A DNA stretch of 64,000 nucleotides from Omnitrophica WOR_2 bacterium GWF2_43_52 (GTDB taxonomy: Bacteria; Omnitrophota; Gorgyraeia; Gygaellales; UBA12090), in assembly GCA_001805445.1 (NCBI GenBank), contig MHGF01000038.1, positions 4,912 to 68,911 on the forward strand, written 5' to 3'. This document shows, piece after piece, positions 1 to 32,855 of the stretch (positions are counted from its first letter, which is position 1; each line of letters begins with the position of its first letter). Below the pieces are notes generated by a model. It saw nothing but the letters and a program-made list of their open reading frames with translations, ran no database searches and was not told the origin of the DNA. A program made the position numbers and the translations under genes.

Positions 1-558
1 CAAAGAGGTAATGCCCATGCCTTTTACTGTCAAAAGACTTAAGAAACCCATCGTAAGAAAGATGGCCATTGGGTCATTGCTGCCGGATTCAAATTCCAGC
101 AATGGCTTCAAAGGCTTTTTAAGGCTTATCCTTTTCGATCTGAGAATAGCGAATACAGTGGCAGCATCAGTTGAAGAAACGATAGAACCAAGAAGCATTC
201 CTTCCAAAATTGAAAATTTCAGGATATAGACAGCGAAAAACCCAATAATAATGGCTGTAAGCAAAACTCCCAATGTCGAAAGTATCAATCCCGGTAAAAC
301 AACTGATTTTGTATCTTTCCAATTAGTATCAAAACCTCCGGAGAAGATAATAAAAATGAGTGCAACAACGCCGGTGGATTTCGCCAACTGGGCATCATCA
401 AAATAAATTTTCCCGATTCCTTCCGAACCAGCAAGCATCCCGATCGTCAAAAATAGCAATAAAACAGGAACGGCAAATTTATCCGAGAGTTTGCTGGAAA
501 CAACGCTCACAAATAGTAAAACCGCAATCCATAATATAATAGTTTCAAATGCCATAAT
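1..558 (-). CDS. Cation:proton antiporter (CPA1/NhaP-like), N-terminal part; the gene runs leftward beyond the window start
   Basis: The minus-strand reading from ATG at 556-558 gives MIMAFETIILWIAVLLFVSVVSSKLSDKFAVPVLLLFLTIGMLAGSEGIG..., typical of the NhaP/CvrA TM1-TM4 region. The ORF stays open to position 1. The plus-strand ORF 11-229 is its antisense. Confidence 0.55.
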   Translation of the reverse strand, partial: MMAFETIILWIAVLLFVSVVSSKLSDKFAVPVLLLFLTIGMLAGSEGIGKIYFDDAQLAKSTGVVALIFIIFSGGFDTNWKDTKSVVLPGLILSTLGVLLTAIIIGFFAVYILKFSILEGMLLGSIVSSTDAATVFAILRSKRISLKKPLKPLLEFESGSNDPMAIFLTMGFLSLLTVKGMGITSL

Positions 559-892
559 CATGCCTAATTATACTTCTTTTTCAATCTTACCTATAAATTT
601 TATATTGCCACTATTTTAATGTTACGTGGCAGTGCGTCCATCGGTTGGCTTCAAAACAGCGCTACGTGACCCGTCATTCTCGAAAAGCGCTTTAAGGAAG
701 CTCAACGTAGTCCTGTAGGACCGCACCCATCGGTTTGTCATAAATTTCTACAAAAACCCTCATGCTATAACTCTTGGTGAAACCAATTTCAAAATCGGCG
801 TTTCGAGAAATTCTCTAAGCGCAATTCCCCCGTTTCCCTCTATCAGCGTCTTTGCACGCGGGTACCGTTTTTTGAATGCACACAACCCCTTC

Positions 893-986
893 GAGGCGGA
901 ATCCCGACCGAACCGTTCCGACCAAAGCGTCGGAACTCCATCCGCGGCCTGAAGACCGCGGTTTTGAAGCGTCAGGATAAGAATAC
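893..986 (+). ncRNA. Repeat / candidate small structured RNA (copy 1), carrying an extra internal hairpin
   Basis: ggaatcccgaccga...ctccatccgcggcctgaagaccgcggttttgaagcgtcaggataa. Same terminator-like hairpin as 31236-31310. Confidence 0.4.
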
Positions 987-1038: not shown

Positions 1039-2073
1039 TTATTTCACAATCAGCTTCCCCTTCATCTTGCCATGGCCCATGCCGCAAAAAACACTGCAAT
1101 TGGTTCTAAATTCGCCTGTCTTATCCGCGATAAATTCAACCACCGCTTCTTTATCTGTCGGCATTACCAAATTTACCTTAAATTCAGGAATAGCAATACC
1201 ATGAGTTACATCTGTGCTTTTGGCGACGAAACGAATTTTTTCACCCTTTTTTACAACTATAGGGTCTGGCTCGAATTTAAACTTGGAAGCCTTTAACTCA
1301 ATAACCCTCACACCATTCTCCAATCTTCCGGAAAGACTCGATTCAACAGTTCCTGCCTTTTGCTCCTGAGGCGCGCTTGACGATTCTTTTACCTTTGCCT
1401 CTACTTTAACTGAAACCTCCGGGTATAAAGGGTCATTGCTGGCAATCATCACCTCACGAATCAAATCCCCCGCCTTTACACTTTTATGCGCCAGGTCTAA
1501 GATTACTTCTAAATCAGCGGTTTCATTCGGCTTTACTTCCATCTGCCATTCAGAAGGCGCGCCTTTAGTGTCAAAATACGGGCTTTTGCTGTTTCCCACT
1601 GCCAAAGAGGCAGTGGTACAGGTACACGATGCCTTTATATTTTTAATTAATAAACTAGCCGTACCTTTGTTGTAGAGCTTAAATACCTTGGTTACCTTGC
1701 CCTGGGCTTTATCAACCTGCCCAAAGTTAAACGCGGCCGGCTCTAAGATTATCTGCGGGCGGGTTTCACCTACTTCCGCAGTCAGCTTTTTTTCCAAAGT
1801 CTCCTTAAGTTGAGGGTCTAAAATGCTTCTTAGAGAAAACTTCTTGGCAACCTTATAGTAAATAGCTTCTTTAGGTACCTCTGTCTCTAACAACGCATCA
1901 ATGTATGCTTTCATCTCTTTGGCGTCCGGGCACTGGCATTCACTTAAAGCCATATTACAGCGGCGGTCGCGCAATTTAGAATAAATCTCCGCTTTTATAG
2001 CATCGTTGTTTTGAGCCCATGCAGATTGTGCTGTCAACATAACGGCTAAAAAGAACAAACTGACTTTCTTCAT
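1039..2073 (-). CDS. Secreted DUF1573 protein with a C-terminal CuA-type cupredoxin domain
   Basis: Signal peptide MKKVSLFFLAVMLTAQSAWA. ASCTCT motif typical of DUF1573. C-terminus THGIAIPEF...CSVFCGMGHGKM gives the H-C-x3-C-x3-H-x2-M ligand set of binuclear CuA centres (COX2 / N2OR-like). Confidence 0.65.
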   Translation of the reverse strand: MKKVSLFFLAVMLTAQSAWAQNNDAIKAEIYSKLRDRRCNMALSECQCPDAKEMKAYIDALLETEVPKEAIYYKVAKKFSLRSILDPQLKETLEKKLTAEVGETRPQIILEPAAFNFGQVDKAQGKVTKVFKLYNKGTASLLIKNIKASCTCTTASLAVGNSKSPYFDTKGAPSEWQMEVKPNETADLEVILDLAHKSVKAGDLIREVMIASNDPLYPEVSVKVEAKVKESSSAPQEQKAGTVESSLSGRLENGVRVIELKASKFKFEPDPIVVKKGEKIRFVAKSTDVTHGIAIPEFKVNLVMPTDKEAVVEFIADKTGEFRTNCSVFCGMGHGKMKGKLIVK

Positions 2074-2151
2074 CACACTACCTCCCATGTTAGAAATAAT
2101 ACGCGCGTCGTATAATCCATAGACTATAGACTATGGGCTATCGACTCTTAT

Positions 2152-3094: not shown

Positions 3095-4432
3095 CTATCT
3101 GCCCCACACAACCCACACCAAAAGATAGGCTGCAACTACCGCCACAAGCGTAAAAGGCAGGCCTATCTTCATAAAATGAGTAAACTTGACCGGATAGCCT
3201 TCTTTTTTCAGCAGGCCGCAGGCAACAATATTAGCCGACGCCCCAATTGGAGTAATATTGCCTCCTAAGCTCGCCCCGATAAGCAGGCCGAAAAGAAATA
3301 ACGAAGGATTGACCGCTAATTTACCGGACATAGTGATTGCTACAGGAAGCATTGCCGCTAAAAAAGGGACGTTATCCACAAACGCGGATAAAAAGACGGC
3401 GATAAAAACAAGCAAGGTATAGCCTAAGAATATATTTTCCCCCACAAGCCCTGAGAGGAAATGCGCGGTTGTCTCAATCCATCCGGTTGAGCTAATGCTG
3501 CCTACCAAAATGAAAATTCCTACCAAAAACAAGGTGGTCTCCCAGTCCAAAGATTTTATTCCCTCAATAATAGAGCCCTTATTGACAAGTTTTTCCCACA
3601 GGATTGCTATTATGCCAAACACTATACAAATGATACCCGCGGCATAGGAAAATCCCGTATCAAAAAAAGAGGACAACGCCAGCAAGACAATAAGGCTTAC
3701 TAAGAGTATTGTAGGGACCCATGAACGCACCTTTTCAACCGGAATAAGCGTAGTTTTTTCCCTAAGATTTCTAAAAATAAAATATAACACAAAAAAAGAG
3801 GCGATTGCCCCTAACTCAACCGCGAAGAAGATACTGGGGCGTCCCTTATAAAAAAAGAAGTCCCAAAAGGTCATCTTGGCAAAACCGCCTAAAAGCATAC
3901 TGGGAGGATCCCCAATCAGCGTTGCAACCCCTTGCAAATTGCTAGAGATGGCAATGGCAATCATCATATTCGTCGGGTTTATTTTTAGTTTTTTGGCTAA
4001 AGATAAGGCAATGGGCGCGACAATCAAAACCGTTGCCACATTCTCCACAAATGCTGAGATAAAACCGGCAAGCGCGCAGATTAAAAGTATTGACCAAGCG
4101 GTATTCTTGGCTTTATCAACGATTATCTCAGCGATATACGCGGGGACCCGGCTCTCCATAAAGATATCCGCTACCACTAATGTCCCGACGAATATCCCCA
4201 TCACATTCCAGTTAATGGCGAAGAATGCCTGTTGAGGGCTTATCACCCCTAATAAAACCAAAAGCAGCGCGGCCGTAACCGCAATATGCGTCCTTTTCTT
4301 GGGCAAGAAAACAAAAAGAATATACGCGCTGATAAAGATCAAAAGCGCCGTTGCCTTGGTTTCCATAAAACTCATCATAATCGTAACCAATATATTTAAT
4401 TCCAATGCGGGTTTGGAATTCCAAACCCGCAT
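3095..4432 (-). CDS. ArsB/NhaD (SLC13/DASS-like) anion permease
   Basis: 445-aa polytopic membrane protein with the duplicated repeat architecture typical of the ArsB/NhaD/citrate transporter superfamily. Start codon uncertain (an internal MMSFMETK is also possible). Confidence 0.6.
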   Translation of the reverse strand: MRVWNSKPALELNILVTIMMSFMETKATALLIFISAYILFVFLPKKRTHIAVTAALLLVLLGVISPQQAFFAINWNVMGIFVGTLVVADIFMESRVPAYIAEIIVDKAKNTAWSILLICALAGFISAFVENVATVLIVAPIALSLAKKLKINPTNMMIAIAISSNLQGVATLIGDPPSMLLGGFAKMTFWDFFFYKGRPSIFFAVELGAIASFFVLYFIFRNLREKTTLIPVEKVRSWVPTILLVSLIVLLALSSFFDTGFSYAAGIICIVFGIIAILWEKLVNKGSIIEGIKSLDWETTLFLVGIFILVGSISSTGWIETTAHFLSGLVGENIFLGYTLLVFIAVFLSAFVDNVPFLAAMLPVAITMSGKLAVNPSLFLFGLLIGASLGGNITPIGASANIVACGLLKKEGYPVKFTHFMKIGLPFTLVAVVAAYLLVWVVWGR

Positions 4433-4455
4433 TGGAATTACTTTGGTTTTATTTA

Positions 4456-7200
4456 CTAAAGCCCCTTTAAGAAATTCCGTTTTCTATTAATAAGCTTTAC
4501 GATCTCCATCGCCCAGAGAGGAAACGATGAAATGCCCACCACCAAAACCCAATCAAATATCCCTAAGGCCTCGGTTTTAAATATCTTTTGCAAAAACGGT
4601 ATATAGACAACCGCCATCTGCAGGAAAAACGATACGCCTGTAGCTAGAATAAGCTTCTTATTGGTGAATATCCCTATTTTAAACAATGATTCCGTCATAC
4701 TCCGGCAGTTATAGGAATGAAATAACTGGCTGCATGATAACACGATAAATGCCGCGGTACGCGCCCGTTCAATACCTTCTTTTTCAATAAACAGCACAAA
4801 GGTAAACGCCAGCAAACTGCAAAAGGCAATAAACGCCCCTTGCGCGAGCATCAAAAATGCCCTCTGCTTAGTAACCACCTTTTCATTGATTTTTCGGGGA
4901 GGCCTCCGCATAATGTGCGGGTCAACAGAATCAACCCCCAAGGCCAAGGCAGGAAAACCGTCGGTAACCAGATTAATCCAAAGGATATGGATAGGCAAAA
5001 GCGGTACCGGCAGCCCCACCAGGGAGGAAACAAACATCACCAGTATTTCTCCGGCATTGCAGGACAACAGGTAGTGCACAAATTTCTTGATGTTATCGTA
5101 GATGCCCCTGCCTTCTTCTACCGCCGCCACAATAGAGGCAAAATTATCATCGGTAATAACCATATCCGATACTTCCTTGGTCACATCGGTCCCGGTAATA
5201 CCCATAGCCACGCCGATATCCGCCTCCTTAACCGCCGGGGCATCGTTAACGCCGTCACCGGTCATCGCAGCGATTTCTCCTTTTGAGCGCCAGGCCCTGA
5301 CAATACGCAGCTTATGTTCTGGAGAAACCCTGGCGTAGACCGGTATCCTCTCTACCTCTTTAGCAAACTGTTCATCACTAAGCCGGTCCAATTCCTCTCC
5401 GGTGAGCGCCAAAGAACCCTCTTTAAAAAATCCCAATTCCTTAGCAATGGCTACCGCGGTATTCTTGTGGTCACCGGTAATCATCACGCTTTTTATCCCT
5501 GCCCGCGCGCATTCGGCAATCGCCTTTTTCACTTCTTCTCTGGGAGGATCAATCATGGCAATTAACCCCGCGAAGGTAAGCTCACGCTCAATAAGTGTTG
5601 CTTCATAAGCCCGCGGGGCCGTATCCAGCCTACTGTAGGCCACTGCCAAGACCCTCAGCGCGGAGTTAGCCAAATCGCTGTTTACCGTAAGTATTTTTTT
5701 TCTATCATCATCAGTAAGCGCGCGCGCGCTGCCTTTTTCTTCAATTGCCGTACAATCACCAAGCAAAATATCCGGCGCTCCTTTAACAAACGCGACTAAC
5801 CCTTCTTTATCTTTTCGCACGATGGTCATTTTTTTGCGCTCTGAATCAAACGGAATTTCTTCCGTAAAAAGAAATTGTTCTTCCAGCTTTTCTTTCCATA
5901 AACCGGCTTTCGCGGCCGCGCTTAAAAGCGCTCCTTCGGTAGGGTCACCGACAATTTTATAACCTCCGTTATTTTTTTGTAATTCCGCGCCGTTACAGAG
6001 TACCGCGCAGCGTAACGCCGTATGTAATCCGGGATAATCAACCGGATTCACCGCTTTTTCATTAAACAAAAAATCTCCCTTTGGCTCATAACCGACGCCA
6101 GTTACTTTTAATAAAGCGTTGTCAGCAGAAACTACCTGCACGGTCATTTCATTCTTGGTAAGGGTGCCTGTCTTATCCGAACAAATCACTGTGGCACAGC
6201 CTAAGGTTTCAACTGAAGGCAATTTTCGGATAAGGGCATGGCGCTTGACCATCCGCTGAACTCCAAGAGCTAAGGCAATGGTTACTACTGCCGGCAGGCC
6301 TTCAGGGATAGCGGCTACCGCGAGGCTTACCGCGATAAGAAATACATCAATAAGTTTTCCGCCGCGCAGCCACTCTAAAAGAAAAACCAAACCCACAAGG
6401 ATAAAACACAAATATACTATCCATTTCCCGAATTCCTCTAACTTCTTCTGTAACGGCGTGGCCTCTTCTTTTACCTCCTGAATCATCCCGGCGATTTTGC
6501 CTAATTCTGTCTGCATGCCGGTTTCACAGACCAGCGCCCTTGCCTTACCCGCGGCAACTGAAGTCCCCATATAGGCCATATTGGCACGCTCAGCTAAAGG
6601 TATTTCCTGCCTATCGGCCCCGCCAGCGACGGGGCTGACAGGCAGGCTTTTTCCTAAAGGTAAGATGGCCTTCAATACCGGAGTAGATTCTCCGGTAAGG
6701 CTAGCCTCCTGGGTCGATAAATTAGCCGTAAGCCATACAATGCGGCTGTCTGCCGGGATATTATCACCAGCCTCCAATGCAATCAGGTCTCCCGGAACCA
6801 ATTCGTGTGAAGCGATAACACCATGCTGGCCGTCACGGATAACCTTGGAAGTAGGCGAAGATAATTTTTTTAAGGCGGCCATAGATTTTTCCGCCCGGTA
6901 CTCCTGAACAAAACCCAAAATGGCATTAAGGATGACAATGACAATAATGGCAGACGCGTCAACCCACTCTTTAAGGAATCCGGAAACCAGGGCCGCGGCA
7001 ATTAAAATCCAGACAATAAAATTCTGAAATTGGCTTAAGAAAATACTAAAAGGGCTTACCGGCTTTTTCTCTTTCAGCTGGTTCGGCCCGTATTTCTGAA
7101 GCCTTGCACGCGCCTCATCGGATGCCAACCCAAGAGACGAATTCGCTTCTAATGTTTGCACTACTTCATCAATAGTAAGATGCCACCATTGTTTAGCCAT
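4456..7200 (-). CDS. Cation-transporting P-type ATPase, type II (Ca2+/Mg2+ type), not a Cu-ATPase
   Basis: DKTGTLT phosphorylation motif and [10 protein letters not shown] hinge. [11 protein letters not shown] in TM4 is the PEGLP signature of type IIA/IIB pumps. There is no CPC motif or HMA domain. Start taken at MAKQWW. Confidence 0.85.
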
Positions 7201-15734: not shown

Positions 15735-15779
15735 AGTTTAACAGCCAGCTCCTCTAGTGCTCCGTTACCTTAATTCTTA

Positions 15780-24114: not shown

Positions 24115-26358
24115 CTATTTTTCCAATTCTGCCTTTAGTTTTTCTAGGTCGGTAACGGGCAATTTGCAGGTATACTTTTCACAGACGTATGCCGTTGCCT
24201 TGTGTTCTAAAGGGATTTGGTTTTCTAAAAATGGTATAAGCTTAATAATTTTGGTTGCTTCTCTTTTATCCGCGGGGTGAAATACAAGTATTTTATTCGG
24301 CATAAAGCGCTGATACACGGCCTTTATCATCTGCTGCGTGCCTTCAGATTCACCATCTCCGGCAATAACAATCTCTTTTGAGGGGCCAAAGGCGAAATCC
24401 AAAGCGCTTAGGGTTTGCGCGCAGGCTGTAGGAGAGCGGGAAATTTCGGCTGAAAACGCCTTAAAAAAGGCTTCCGCTTTTTTGTCTAATTCTTTATCCA
24501 TAAAAAAACGCGCTAACCGCAACAAATCCAAACCCGCAATGGAATTACCTGACGGCATTGCCCCGTCATAGGCTGTCTTATGCCGGATGAAAAGCCTTTC
24601 TGCATCAGAGGCTGTTGAAAAAAACCCTCCGTCTTGCGTATCCCAGAAAAGCTCAAGCATCTCCTGGGTAAACCGTTTGGCGTGCGCAAGGTATTCCGGC
24701 TTAAAACCTGCCTCATATAAATCAAGCAGCCCTTGGATAAAAAAGGCATAATCATCAAGCATTCCTTTAATCGCGGCTTCCCCGTCGCGATAGCGGTGCA
24801 AAAGCCTGCCGTTTTTATCCTGCAAATTCTTTAAAATGAATTGGGCGGCTTTCTCTGCCTGCACAAGATACGCCGGCTCATTTAACACGCGCGCGCCGAT
24901 GGAAAAAGCTGAAATCATCAGGCCGTTCCAATCTGTCAGGATTTTATCATCGCGATGAGGGCGCGGCCTTTTGTTACGGAGAGCAAAAAGCTTATTTTTT
25001 GCTTCATTTATTGTTTTCTTTATTTCTTGAGGGGATTTTCCAAATTGAGCAGCAGTTTCTTCTATCGTATGCGCGATATAAAAGACATTTTTATTTTTAA
25101 ATTCTCCCTGCGGATCAGACAACGCGTTACCGCTATCCTCAATGCCAAAATAAAAGCATATTACATCTAAGAACGGCTTGTCCAAAATGCGAGTAAGCTC
25201 ATCTTTTGTCCAGAGATAGAATGCGCCTTCGGTTTTTCTCTTACTCTCTGCTTCGATCGAGTCGGCGTCTTCCGCGGAATAAAAACCTCCTTCCAAAGAA
25301 AACACATCACGCAGGACATATTCAAAAATGCCTTTGGCCGTCTGGGCATGCTCTTGTTTTCCCGTTACCTGATACGCCTCTATATATGCCTTGGCAAGTA
25401 TCGCCTGGTCATAGAGCATCTTCTCAAAATGAGGAATACGCCACTGCCTGTCCGTCGAATAGCGGTGAAACCCTCCGCCAAGCTGGTCATACATCCCGCC
25501 TTGCGCCATCGCGCTCAATGTTTTCTCAACCATCTCAAGCGCCTTTGGCTCTTTGGAGCGCTTCCAATAACGTAAAAGAAAAGAGAGCGAATGCCCGGAA
25601 GGAAACTTTGGGGCATCGCTAAAGCCGCCGTAGCGCTCATCAAAGTTCGCGCTAAAATCTTCATAGGCGCTTTTGAATATCTCTTCGGTAAGAGAAAACC
25701 CTTCTTTAGTTTCTTTTTGCTTAGTAAGAGCCTGGGTGAGCTCCTGCGCGGTATCAACGAGCTTATCCCTGCGGCTCTTCCAATTCTTGATAATTGATAA
25801 AAGCAATGTTTTAAAACCGGGCCTGCCCCAGCTGTCCTCTACAGGAAAGTAGGTGCCGCCGTAAAAAGGCTTTTTCTCAGGTGTTAGAAAAACGTTTAAC
25901 GGCCAACCGCCGGAGCCGGTCAAAGCCATTACCGCCTGCATATAGATTTCGTCTAAATCCGGCCTTTCTTCACGGTCAACCTTGATAGGGACAAAATAGG
26001 CATTGAGTAGGCCAGCGATTTCCTCACTGGAAAATGCCTCTTCCTCCATCACATGGCACCAATGGCAGGTGGAATAGCCTATAGAAACAAACAGCGGCTT
26101 ATCTTCTTTTTGCGCCTTTTGGAATGCTTCATCACCCCAAGGATACCAGTCAACCGGATTATGGGCATGCTGCAAAAGATACGGGCTCTTTTCCTTGATA
26201 AGGCGATTAGTAACGATGTTTTTCGGCTCTGTTTTATTTTCTTTTGTATTCACGTTGCAGGCTCCCAGAAAAAATAAGAATGGAATACTTAAAAATATAC
26301 TACTTCGTAATAAATCCTTCGCCTCATTCATCAAAGGATATAGTTGTTTCCACCTCAT
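24115..26358 (-). CDS. Thioredoxin-domain protein, DUF255/YyaL family (thioredoxin fold + six-hairpin glycosidase-like domain)
   Basis: [50 protein letters not shown] is the family hallmark. Lipoprotein-like N-terminus (FLGAC). Confidence 0.85.
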
Positions 26359-30065: not shown

Positions 30066-31187
30066 CTATTGTTTGGGAAAGCTTACATTCTTCATTATCC
30101 AGCCTAGTTTTTCCTGAAGGCTGATAAAAGATGGGTTCTGTCCTAGTTTTTGAAGAGCGTAGGGGTAAGACTTATAGATTAAGAAGGAGCTGCTTGCGAG
30201 AAAAAGCGCGATAATCACCACTCTTGGTATGCTAATAATTTGCCGCAGGCTGAATCGCTGGGCTTCATCAAAAGCATTCGTTATTTCTCGACGGGTAAAA
30301 TAGAGAATCCCGAAGAGGCAAAAAGCAAGCGCGTACCAACGCCAGTGAGACGAAGCGTCAAATATTTTCTGCATGCTTTTACTTCCGGGAATTTCTTGAG
30401 GGAATTTTATCTTCCGGCTTTGGTATTCAGGAGGCGCCTCTTGCGAATATTTCTGGGAGGCGATACTCTGGATTTTTCTTCGTAAGGCTATTTCTGCCGC
30501 GGTTTCAAAGAGGCCGAAAGCAAGCAAAATAATCAAAAGTAACCGTGCCCAACGCCGCATATAGAAAACCCCCGCGAGCACTAATAAAAATAAAAACGAT
30601 AGGCTAAACATGGCCAGAGGATTCACTCTAAGGAAAGCACTCCAAGAACCTCCGTATGCTACGATACCACCTAAAGAAGCGGTCATTACCGTGGCATAAC
30701 TAAGCCATAAACACATAAGCTTAATGCCAAATGGCCTACCAAAGCCCGCCCTATTGATTTTACTTACGATAAAATACGGCAGCGATAAAATGATAAACAG
30801 CACTATGGAAAAAACACTCAAGGCAATGCCTAATCTTTTTGCCCCAATTTCCAGTGCCTGCGGGCTGGGGACAGGTTCTTCTGTTTGCGGGAAAGAAGCA
30901 GGCTGCTTCCTGCTGCCGGATTTTATTGGTTTTTTTCGCGGCGTAGCAGGAATTGCAACGGATGACTGCTCAATAAATTTCAATTGTGATTTTGATATCT
31001 TCGTCTTGCTTGTTCCACTTTCCCAATATACCTCAAACCAGACAGACTCAGGGTCTTCTTTGATAACCTTTCCTTCCATGATATTACCGTTTTTAAGATA
31101 AACCTTGTCCGCATGGACAGAAGGACATGCCAGGAATAAAAAAACCATACCCCAAACTATCCTTATGATTCTTGGCATAGTGAACAT
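30066..31187 (-). CDS. Hypothetical membrane protein
   Basis: N-terminal signal/TM followed by several TM helices. No recognised motif. Confidence 0.45.
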   Translation of the reverse strand: MFTMPRIIRIVWGMVFLFLACPSVHADKVYLKNGNIMEGKVIKEDPESVWFEVYWESGTSKTKISKSQLKFIEQSSVAIPATPRKKPIKSGSRKQPASFPQTEEPVPSPQALEIGAKRLGIALSVFSIVLFIILSLPYFIVSKINRAGFGRPFGIKLMCLWLSYATVMTASLGGIVAYGGSWSAFLRVNPLAMFSLSFLFLLVLAGVFYMRRWARLLLIILLAFGLFETAAEIALRRKIQSIASQKYSQEAPPEYQSRKIKFPQEIPGSKSMQKIFDASSHWRWYALAFCLFGILYFTRREITNAFDEAQRFSLRQIISIPRVVIIALFLASSSFLIYKSYPYALQKLGQNPSFISLQEKLGWIMKNVSFPKQ

Positions 31188-31235
31188 GAATGGAGCCCAC
31201 CCGGGCTAAAGCCCGGGGTTCCTTTTTTTCTTGCC

Positions 31236-31310
31236 CCTTCGGGGCAGAATCCCGACCGACTCCATCCGCGGCCTGAAGGCCGCGGTTTTGAAGCGTCGGG
31301 ATAAATCCTG
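31236..31310 (+). ncRNA. Repeat / candidate small structured RNA ending in an intrinsic terminator (copy 2 of a 2-copy family)
   Basis: gccccttcggggc hairpin followed by agaatcccgaccgactccat + ccgcggcc-tgaa-ggccgcgg + ttttgaag. Paralogous to 893-986. Confidence 0.4.
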
Positions 31311-31412: not shown

Positions 31413-31634
31413 CTACGCTGCCTCGACTCGTTTTACCTCCGGAACTTCCTGCTTAATGATACGCTCAACGCCCATTTTAAGGGTCATCGCGCTCATAGGA
31501 CATCCGCCACAAGCACCGGTAAGGCGGATTTTGACTACTCCGTCATCTGTTATATCCACAAGCTCTGCTGAGCCGCCGTCAGCAGCCAGCATTGACCTGA
31601 CTTTTTCAAGTGCCTTGAGAACTTTATCTCTCAT
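31413..31634 (-). CDS. NifU-like (Nfu-type) Fe-S cluster scaffold/carrier protein
   Basis: GGSAELVDITDDGVVKIRLTGACGGCPMSAMTLKMGVE gives the CxxC NifU C-terminal domain. Confidence 0.75.
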   Translation of the reverse strand: MRDKVLKALEKVRSMLAADGGSAELVDITDDGVVKIRLTGACGGCPMSAMTLKMGVERIIKQEVPEVKRVEAA

Positions 31635-31911
31635 GGTAAACCTCCTCAATGCCCGACATAACCTACGCCTGCCTACTGCTTGAGGCAGTAAGCTTTTATT
31701 TTCATAAGAGTGGCATACGTTCCGCCGGAGCTGATCCCGCCGAATGCATTAAAATTATACCGCGTGATATCCCTTCCTATCCTAAAAGGAAGAGGTTTAT
31801 CCCAAGAGAATTTTAGTGCGGCTTAGGTGACGGGATATTCATTGTATCTACTCTTAAAATTTATGCTCTTACTAATATCATACCCCACAATTACTTTTTC
31901 GGCAAGGATTT

Positions 31912-32637: not shown

Positions 32638-32855
32638 AGTGCTCCGTCAAATTAATTCTTATGGATAGGCGGAATTTGACTCCGCACTTCCGCTATGGGG
32701 GCAAGCCCCCCTTCGGCGCTCTCCGCCTACGGCGGATCGCTGAGCACCCCCCAATCGCGGGGAAAATATTTCCCCGCGCCCCTTTTCGTACACCGTCACA
32801 CTAATAAAAACTAATTTGATGGTGTACGAGTGCTCCGTTAACTTAATTTTTATGG
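32638..32855. repeat. GC-rich multi-hairpin element bounded by 27-bp direct repeats (agtgctccgtcaaattaattcttatgg / agtgctccgttaacttaatttttatgg). A third copy of the 27-mer lies at 15757-15783
   Basis: The hairpins are gggggcaagccccc, ccgcctacggcgg, cgcggggaaaatatttccccgcg and cgtacacc...ggtgtacg. The motif abuts the rlmB start codon and, at 15757, the azoR pseudogene fragment. Confidence 0.55.

Follow-up and report, generated by a model that had tools for sequence, protein, structure and literature searches.

A Small, Gene-Less Mobile Element With Near-Terminal Hairpins in Candidatus Omnitrophota, Possibly a PATE-Like IS200/IS605 Derivative

The repeat described here is mobile DNA. Two copies lie in the window, the 64,000-nucleotide stretch of contig MHGF01000038.1 of Omnitrophica WOR_2 bacterium GWF2_43_52 analysed throughout; the mobility of the element follows from polymorphism of its insertion site, from a clean pair of filled and empty alleles, and from in-frame insertions into genes. 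The first-pass annotation of the window had offered two readings of the pair. One of them, a mobile repeat, is upheld by a site that is filled, empty or replaced in near-identical strains, by a clean 111-nt insertion and by in-frame interruptions of genes; the other, an independent small transcript with its own terminator, is not supported: Rfam gives no match, the stem in question is not called by the terminator scan, no promoter-like site adjoins either copy, wobble pairs tend to favor folding of the minus strand, on which the genes lie, and the site is polymorphic. As to its kind, the balance tips slightly toward a PATE, a gene-less derivative of IS200/IS605 elements that would be moved as a single strand by a transposase acting in trans.

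Anatomy of the repeat pair

The window contains a 32-nt core, CCGCGGCCTGAAGRCCGCGGTTTTGAAGCGTC, at exactly two places, 942-973 and 31266-31297, in each case on the plus strand; its chance expectation is zero (matches in 0/100 dinucleotide-preserving shuffles), and an independent repeat search of the window found the same repeat pairs again (D10, D16). The two-copy repeat perceived at first pass is thus borne out, and so is its orientation, with the core on the plus strand and every neighboring gene on the minus strand. Copy 1 lies in a 484-nt spacer between a DUF1573/cupredoxin gene (1039-2088, minus strand) and a Na+/H+ exchanger gene (minus strand), which starts near 555-561 and continues off the window; copy 2 is flanked by an Nfu-type gene (31413-31649) and by the gene of a 373-residue membrane protein (30066-31187), both on the minus strand. 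Neither nhmmer nor cmsearch found a third copy in the window.

The extents originally assigned to the copies (893-986 and 31236-31310) did not survive comparison with the family, which makes the unit longer: copy 2, the intact element, occupies 31191..31301 of the minus strand (111 nt), and as redrawn includes a third hairpin at 31200-31217. Its boundaries come from the empty site L038, from the filled and empty pair L039/L045 and from the family alignments, and carry a 1-nt ambiguity caused by a shared A. The sense strand, which is the minus strand, reads 5'-TCCCGACGCTTCAAAA...GGGTGGGCTCCA-3'; written with the flank and with a bar at each end of the element, the termini are TTTA|TCCCGACG... 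and ...GGGCTCCA|. The 5' flank TTTA (31302..31305, minus strand) lies outside the element and is kept in the empty allele L045; it is a candidate target or left cleavage motif. At the other end, the 3' flank TT (31189..31190, minus strand) points to an apparent target preference TTTA|TT and is followed by the ATG (31187-31185, minus strand) of the downstream 373-residue open reading frame.

Read along the minus strand, folding sets the left near-terminal palindrome, H3 (CCGCGGCC-TTCA-GGCCGCGG; 31266..31285), 16 nt in from the 5' end; it was this stem that had been read as a terminator. H3 is enclosed by an outer helix (31249..31302; ATCCCGAC/GTCGGGAT) in which 31295-31302 pairs with 31249-31256; the pairing is conserved, and some of the variant pairs are wobbles possible on the minus strand only. 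There follow H2 (GCCCC-GAA-GGGGC; 31233..31245), a purine-rich linker (AAGAAAAAAAGGAAC; 31218..31232) that on the plus strand forms the T-rich tract behind H1, and H1 itself (CCCGGGC-TTTA-GCCCGGG; 31200..31217), the right near-terminal palindrome, 9 nt from the 3' end. The 3' terminal nonamer TGGGCTCCA (31191..31199) contains a TCC that pairs with the GGA 5' of H1, and is a candidate right cleavage motif (TCCA or TTCA). The family consensus in sense orientation accordingly runs from the flank TTTA through TCCCGACGCTTCAAAA, H3, ATGGAGTCGGTCGGGAT and TCC in its left part, and through H2, AAGAAGAAAAGGAAC, H1 and TGGGCTCCA to the flank TT in its right part; the segment ATGGAGTCGGTCGGGAT after H3 closes the outer helix with the first bases of the element. 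Terminal inverted repeats are absent, as the 5' end TCCCGACGCTTC and the 3' end GGGTGGGCTCCA are not reverse complements of each other in any of the 15 copies compared.

Copy 1 (843..977, minus strand) is older and decayed; degeneration affects H1 and the 3' end, and the 5' two-thirds are preserved. The 3' boundary is uncertain, falling at 843 by nhmmer and at 874 by cmsearch. Its 5' flank is CTTA (978..981, minus strand). In its H3 (942..961, minus strand) a U.G wobble on the minus strand corresponds to a C.A mismatch on the plus strand, so that the perfect 8-bp stem described at first pass exists in copy 2 only. A small 5' hairpin had been attributed to copy 2 alone and called GNRA-like; the hairpin is real (GCCCC-TTC-GGGGC on the plus strand), its loop is not GNRA, and it is present in both copies, being the counterpart of H2. 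In copy 1 it is imperfect (886..896, minus strand), with full pairing on the minus strand only, by way of wobble pairs. The extra internal hairpin seen in copy 1, of 24 nt, is confirmed at 916..935 (minus strand; TTCCGACGCTTTGGTCGGAA); it follows GGATGGAG as an insert that repeats the outer helix in miniature, and recurs in the family members L006, L016 and L044. The sequence of copy 1 is unchanged in 14 other assemblies of this species; 10 assemblies of related strains, all identical at copy 1, offered no empty site there.

A family of insertions at polymorphic sites

A scan of metagenomes with the pattern CCGCGG-N8-CCGCGGTTTTGAAG returned 20 loci, 11 of them true copies, whose similarity to the window copies extends over about 110-140 nt and then ends; their flanks are unrelated. 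The six-frame translation of the element, used as a query, matched 4 proteins only, all in sense frame 1, and led to 4 more loci, for a total of 15 independent insertion loci with each site counted once. Further copies, the lack of which was named at first pass as part of a refutation that would leave a chance duplication, thus exist. The loci come from groundwater and sediment metagenomes, the family being seen in metagenome contigs only, and every contig open to assignment is from Candidatus Omnitrophota. Database entries for proteins of the window likewise derive from Candidatus Omnitrophota/Omnitrophica metagenome-assembled genomes of groundwater and related samples. Among 185,579 species-representative genomes, two exact-pattern scans yielded no family member, the pattern matches L025 and L026 being chance matches; the family is therefore rare, lineage-restricted or poorly assembled. 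Two pattern scans of viral contigs gave 0 matches, and nhmmer and cmsearch found no solitary left or right end beside a gene in about 330 kb of DNA.

The 15 copies are uniform at their edges: the 5' flank is TTTA in 13 and CTTA in two, and the 3' flank starts with TT in all but L024, where it reads CT. Lengths as listed for the 15 loci are 111 nt (seven copies), 108 nt (three), 114, 117 and 141 nt (with two copies given at 141), 112 nt (one) and 136 nt (one); in 13/15 the length (108, 111, 114, 117 or 141 nt) is divisible by three. The secondary structure is conserved along with the edges. In the covariance-model alignment, which is shaped by the model itself and contains a small number of reverse-strand self-matches of palindromes, 94.5% of the helix cells are paired, vs. 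26-53% when the partners are slid against each other, and 8 base pairs have changed on both sides. The covariation is clearest in H3, where most copies carry CCGCGGCC/GGCCGCGG and two, L040 and L041, carry the complementary stem CCGCCCCGC/GCGGGGCGG; H1 has compensatory variants as well, the CCCGGGC stem alternating with CTTCGGGC/GCCCGAGG and CCTCAGGC/GCCTGAGG, and the GGA 5' of H1 covaries with the terminal TCC, the pair being GAA/UUC in L007, L021 and L022. The fold of the element is stable (z = -4 to -5.7). Start or stop codons adjoin several of the copies. On one contig, two direct copies bracket a single small ORF; in another case, L005 and L018 have the 5' flank and the element in common and differ in the 3' flank, a synteny break.

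The spacer between the Nfu-type gene and the membrane protein gene, where copy 2 resides, is found in three states among near-identical strains: filled, empty and replaced. The empty allele, L038, reads ...CAGGATTT-G-TTCATG..., with the target TTTG|TT; in L037, an unrelated 105-nt element sits at the exact insertion point of copy 2. The cleanest comparison is provided by L045 and L039: the empty allele L045 reads GAACAAATTTA|TTGAATGCC, and L039 carries a 111-nt element at the bar without duplication, an insertion into AAATTTA|TTGAATG in which the only ambiguity is the shared A; a 1-bp duplication of this A may have taken place. The three empty alleles examined are not deletions with different end points. 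Insertions into genes add protein-level evidence. In L024, the element lies in frame within a PF09924 gene as a 37-residue insert that is missing from all seven aligned homologs, and the protein has 329 residues, vs. mostly 290-310 in the roughly 120 homologs listed; in L039, the PF04074 protein P0134 contains a 37-residue insert that is missing from its 87%-identical relative P0138.

Orientation and compatibility with coding sequence

The sense strand of the element is co-oriented with the neighboring or host gene at 14/15 loci; in the sole exception, L012, a convergent truA gene ends and the element begins right behind its stop codon. In 16/17 loci the G-rich strand is again the sense strand, in coincidence with gene orientation. 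Since genes, G-richness and element orientation coincide, the orientation bias possibly reflects selection alone; the opposite orientation would place a terminator-like hairpin and its T tract inside operons. Structural asymmetry between the strands is suggestive only, in favor of the sense strand: wobble pairs number 31 cells on the sense strand vs. 6 on the opposite strand, or 12 vs. 4 pair positions (p about 0.08), and RNA folding is more stable for the sense strand in 12/16 copies, whereas as DNA both strands are equal.

Sense frames 1 and 3 are open, and every antisense frame is closed. The 4 database proteins that contain the element all use frame 1, entered as TTT-A|TC..., which gives F-IPTLQNRG...VGS-I; the conserved peptide IPTLQNRGLQAADGVGRDSAPKGQEEKEPRALARVGS has been gained by L024, by L039 and probably by L040, and the insert peptide of the PF09924 and PF04074 proteins includes IPTLQNRGLQAADGVGR.... 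In-frame gene insertion is definite for L024 (PF09924) and L039 (PF04074) and probable for L040 (MFS). For the proteins of L041 and L044, a true internal insertion is improbable: in L041 the element is closely followed by an ATG and may sit in the 5' UTR, and in L044 it lies two codons ahead of the stop. Lengths stay at multiples of three although hairpin changes come in pairs. This tolerance of translation is unusual, and may be due to chance or to adaptation to gene-dense genomes.

A comparable behavior has been described for the Rickettsia palindromic elements (RPEs), which likewise enter unrelated genes in frame and supply them with a conserved peptide (PMC10969869); the likeness is one of behavior only, the hosts being of different phyla and the sequences apparently different, and the copies studied here are mostly intergenic and have a defined target motif. 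It is conceivable, if improbable, that the family is adapted to life in coding sequence, its single orientation, two open frames, lengths in multiples of three and hydrophilic 37-residue peptide making it an analog of the RPEs with TTTA-targeted single-strand insertion. The mechanism of the RPEs is unknown, and the same is true of the small mobile repeats of Haloquadratum. MIRUs, short intergenic repeats oriented with the genes of their operons, have open frames that abut stop and start codons; in a similar manner, the open frames of the element abut the neighboring codons in window copy 2, L023, L041 and L044. MIRUs form tandem arrays with units of 40-100 bp, and are not known to insert singly and precisely at TTTA.

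Candidate mechanism and competing explanations

[quoted passage not shown] The family agrees with this description on each count: inverted repeats are lacking in 15 copies, the palindromes are set back by 16 nt at the 5' end and by 9 nt at the 3' end, the L039/L045 pair and the 37-residue inserts of L024 and P0134 show no target duplication, and 108-141 nt leave no room for a transposase. Insertion 3' of a conserved tetranucleotide that is kept in the empty sites (TTTA|TT in L045, TTTG|TT in L038) is a trait of IS200/IS605 elements. The element thus probably falls within the descriptive definition of a PATE; that it is actually moved by an IS200/IS605 TnpA, judging by these features, stands a little below an even chance.

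On such a mechanism, a Y1 HUH transposase acting in trans would move the element as single-stranded DNA by "peel and paste"; TTTA would serve as left cleavage and target motif and TCCA/TTCA as right cleavage motif. The observed insertions are directly 3' of TTTA, usually at TTTA|TT. The plus-strand terminator of the first-pass annotation is no more than the antisense face of the element's hairpins. The best-studied point of comparison is IS608, whose TnpA makes its cuts on the 3' side of two tetranucleotides, one flanking the element, 19 nt 5' of the left hairpin, and one internal, 10 nt 3' of the right hairpin; four bases located 5' of each hairpin recognize the cleavage sites by base pairing, and the process acts on one strand, is strand-specific and targets the lagging-strand template (PMC3201880). 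Empty sites of the present family are similarly precise, and its one-sided orientation is compatible, as it is with selection, with the lagging-strand-template rule of the IS200/IS605 group, in which one strand is active (PMC3201880). The bases 5' of the hairpins are AAAA before H3 (vs. TTTA) and (A)GGA(A) before H1 (vs. TCC); the covariation of GGA/TCC to GAA/TTC fits a pairing of guide and cleavage site, and fits plain helix extension equally well. In contrast to IS608, the hairpins are nearer the termini (16 and 9 nt from the ends vs. 19 and 10 nt), and a long outer helix starts from the very first base. Unlike IS200/IS605 elements, the element has neither tnpA nor tnpB, and its two near-terminal hairpins are alike in style, not in sequence.

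The documented PATEs, HqIRS of Haloquadratum walsbyi and the ISGst derivatives of Geobacillus stearothermophilus, have the same kind of ends, no duplication and strain-specific insertions in syntenic DNA (PMC3119063, PMC10055086). For ISGst2, PATE-like derivatives and a transposon-adjacent motif TTTAT that resembles the TTTA(T) flank of the element are on record (PMC10055086). Unlike these PATEs, the element is very small and uniform at 111 nt, has an outer helix from base 1, resides in Omnitrophota, and combines open reading frames, lengths mostly in multiples of three and in-frame gene insertions. As a caveat to the likeness, an autonomous partner, that is, a tnpA or tnpB gene or an IS605-type transposon with the same ends, was found at none of the 15 loci, all of which hold short, gene-less copies, and the precomputed Pfam annotations of the genes called near the copies include no transposase. 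PATEs can carry guide RNAs; on this ground it is conceivable, though improbable, that the 3' end of the element acts in addition as a mini omega-RNA that guides a TnpB-type nuclease to empty TTTA sites.

Absence of a transposase partner is what would be expected of a small mobile repeat without terminal inverted repeats that moves by a mechanism unrelated to IS200/IS605 and owes its orientation to selection, the orientation that survives in a gene-dense genome being the one that keeps the terminator-like face antisense and two frames open. This reading is the less likely one. The antisense face does carry a called terminator, the antisense frames are closed and sense frames 1 and 3 open, the lone opposite copy L012 sits directly after the truA stop, where termination is harmless, and lengths mostly in multiples of three together with in-frame gene insertions are reminiscent of RPEs (PMC10969869). 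It is opposed by a set of features specific to IS200/IS605 elements and PATEs: the fixed 4-nt 5' flank, the lack of duplication and of terminal inverted repeats, the asymmetric near-terminal palindromes and the T-N-N-A 3' terminus. To our knowledge, no other known mechanism explains this combination. A classical MITE, by contrast, would be moved by a cut-and-paste DDE transposase with TT target duplication, and L038 would be an excision footprint (TT-G-TT); its GGAT-TT-G-TT-CATG can indeed be read as two TT copies with a residual base, and TT flanks most copies on both sides. Yet the empty allele L045, AAATTTATTGAATG, fits a 111-nt insertion without duplication; a 112-nt element with TT duplication predicts AAATTTGAATG, coding for K-F-E-C, and K-F-I-E-C is observed; in L024 the element adds 37 residues instead of 38 and has CT as its 3' flank; and inverted repeats are lacking at the ends. 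The model of TT duplication and excision footprint is ruled out by L045 and P0138, and the probability left to a classical MITE is negligible. Classical MITEs (Correia, ERIC, RUP) and REP/BIME repeats resemble the element in being small, non-coding, multi-copy, hairpin-forming and mostly intergenic; MITEs have the terminal inverted repeats and target duplications that it lacks, and both MITEs and REPs can affect transcription and cause recombination breakpoints.

REP/BIME-type repeats handled by a RAYT (TnpA-REP) share with the family GC-rich palindromes, multiple copies and a mostly intergenic location, and RAYTs are relatives of the IS200/IS605 TnpA (PMC8266576). It is nevertheless highly improbable that the element belongs here: REPs are solitary palindromes of 20-40 nt that bear a GTAG or CGTC tag at one end (PMC3733652), whereas the element is a 111-nt composite of three different hairpins and their linkers, inserted whole next to a TTTA flank and with no GTAG or CGTC tag before its stems. 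A structured RNA with a cellular function, either a plus-strand sRNA with a terminator or a cis element of the minus-strand mRNAs, could account for the stable folds, the compensatory helix changes, the surplus of minus-strand wobble pairs and the copies that adjoin start or stop codons. It would have to be reconciled with a site that is filled, empty or differently occupied in near-identical strains, with copies within coding sequence, with flanking genes that are unrelated between loci, and with a copy 1 that is decayed yet fixed in 14 assemblies, and is accordingly very doubtful. The Rfam search proposed at first pass produced 0 matches at gathering scores in the window; a permissive search of the intact copy against Rfam 15 (E up to 10) gave nothing credible, the best match being unrelated at 24.5 bits vs. 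a threshold of 75, and listed no transposon-associated RNA. No promoter-like site was found beside copy 2, and the five of copy 1 lie at 506-640, >200 nt away. The reading of H3 as a terminator stem followed by UUUU stands as far as the four T are concerned, but the terminator scan called H3 (followed by TTTTGAAG, 4 T) in neither copy; what it called is H1 with its T tract (31200-31217), on the plus strand and in copy 2 only.

Several narrower identities were tried and rejected. A small plus-strand ORF (MEPTRAKARG...) is shifted in frame by indels between subfamilies, and it is the hairpins that covary instead; for a pseudoknot AUGGAG/CUCCAU, the 3' CUCC pairs at least equally well with the adjacent, covarying GGA, and L024 breaks the pseudoknot. 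An HDV-like ribozyme has, by inspection, a different helix order, and integron attC sites (R''/R') are at odds with element ends that are not complementary. A tRNA-like ...CUCCA 3' end was also considered; the tRNA/tmRNA scan of the window was empty.

The analysis removes a false sRNA/terminator candidate and fixes to the base the limits of a small mobile family in Omnitrophota, whose members are known almost exclusively through metagenome-assembled genomes. The kind of element is known, the family is new, and the phylum has been little studied. Elements of this sort interrupt assemblies, and one of them coincides with the synteny break between L005 and L018; they also yield spurious or extended ORF calls, as in the four database "proteins" that contain the element peptide, and the filled, empty and replaced alleles are ready strain markers. 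The element puts 37 residues into real enzymes; and if the link to IS200/IS605 is true, its TTTA flank would predict which target motif the cognate TnpA, and any TnpB, recognizes in these organisms.

Internal variation of the element and the spacer beside copy 1

Some copies of the 111-nt mobile hairpin element carry an extra hairpin of 24-30 nt after GGATGGAG, namely the decayed copy 1 of the window (extra hairpin at 916-935) and the copies in the metagenome loci L006, L016 and L044; in L016 and L044, exactly 30 nt are added. This hairpin repeats the arms of the element's own outer helix (TCCCGACGCTT...GTCGGGA), the pairing that encloses hairpin H3 near the 5' end, and it looks as if it had arisen by template switching within the palindrome. 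Downstream of copy 1, the remainder of its 484-nt spacer (window 540-860, minus strand) contains a direct repeat, AACCGATGG, and a motif, GCGCTGTTTTGAAGCC, that is similar to CGCGGTTTTGAAGCG of the 111-nt element in opposite orientation; the motif may be the remnant of an older element copy.

Other repeats in the window

A 24-nt direct repeat, TAAGAATTAAnnTnACGGAGCACT as read on the minus strand, occurs at 32638-32661, 32829-32852 and 15756-15779; two of these copies are found upstream of rlmB, whose ATG directly adjoins one of them, and this pair flanks a GC-rich, hairpin-dense stretch of 167 nt, possibly a duplicated leader or a further small element that has inserted there. The 25-nt palindromic motif AATTCCAAACCCGCATTGGAATTAC is found as an inverted pair (4398-4441) and again at 24524-24548. 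Between 57354 and 59364, several families of diverged direct repeats (65-170 nt long, spaced 129-1116 nt and mostly ~200-570 nt apart) look like repeat modules within a long coding region.

Paired copies and a synteny break

On a contig of 142 kb, two direct copies of the 111-nt family, one spanning the joined loci L014 (6823-6890) and L006 (1-79) and the other at L006:623-769, stand ~550 nt apart, share 25 nt of 5' flank and enclose an ORF of 124 residues, PilZ-like; the pair may have arisen by duplication, or the two copies may be carrying a small segment between them. The loci L005 (376-497) and L018 (202-323) have the same upstream gene and element but unrelated DNA downstream, and synteny breaks exactly at the 3' end of the element, as expected if element copies serve as recombination points.

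A second small element at the site of copy 2

At the TTTA site of copy 2, the window has the 111-nt element and the near-identical strain represented by L038 is empty; in L037, from another strain of the same species, exactly this site is occupied by a 105-nt element (5047-5151) of unrelated sequence. The latter has terminal inverted repeats of 9 bp (ACCCCGTTA...TAACGGGGT), and a TTTA duplication could be read at its insertion. Since this element sits at the very TTTA site of the 111-nt element, one tetranucleotide is the target of two different small elements.
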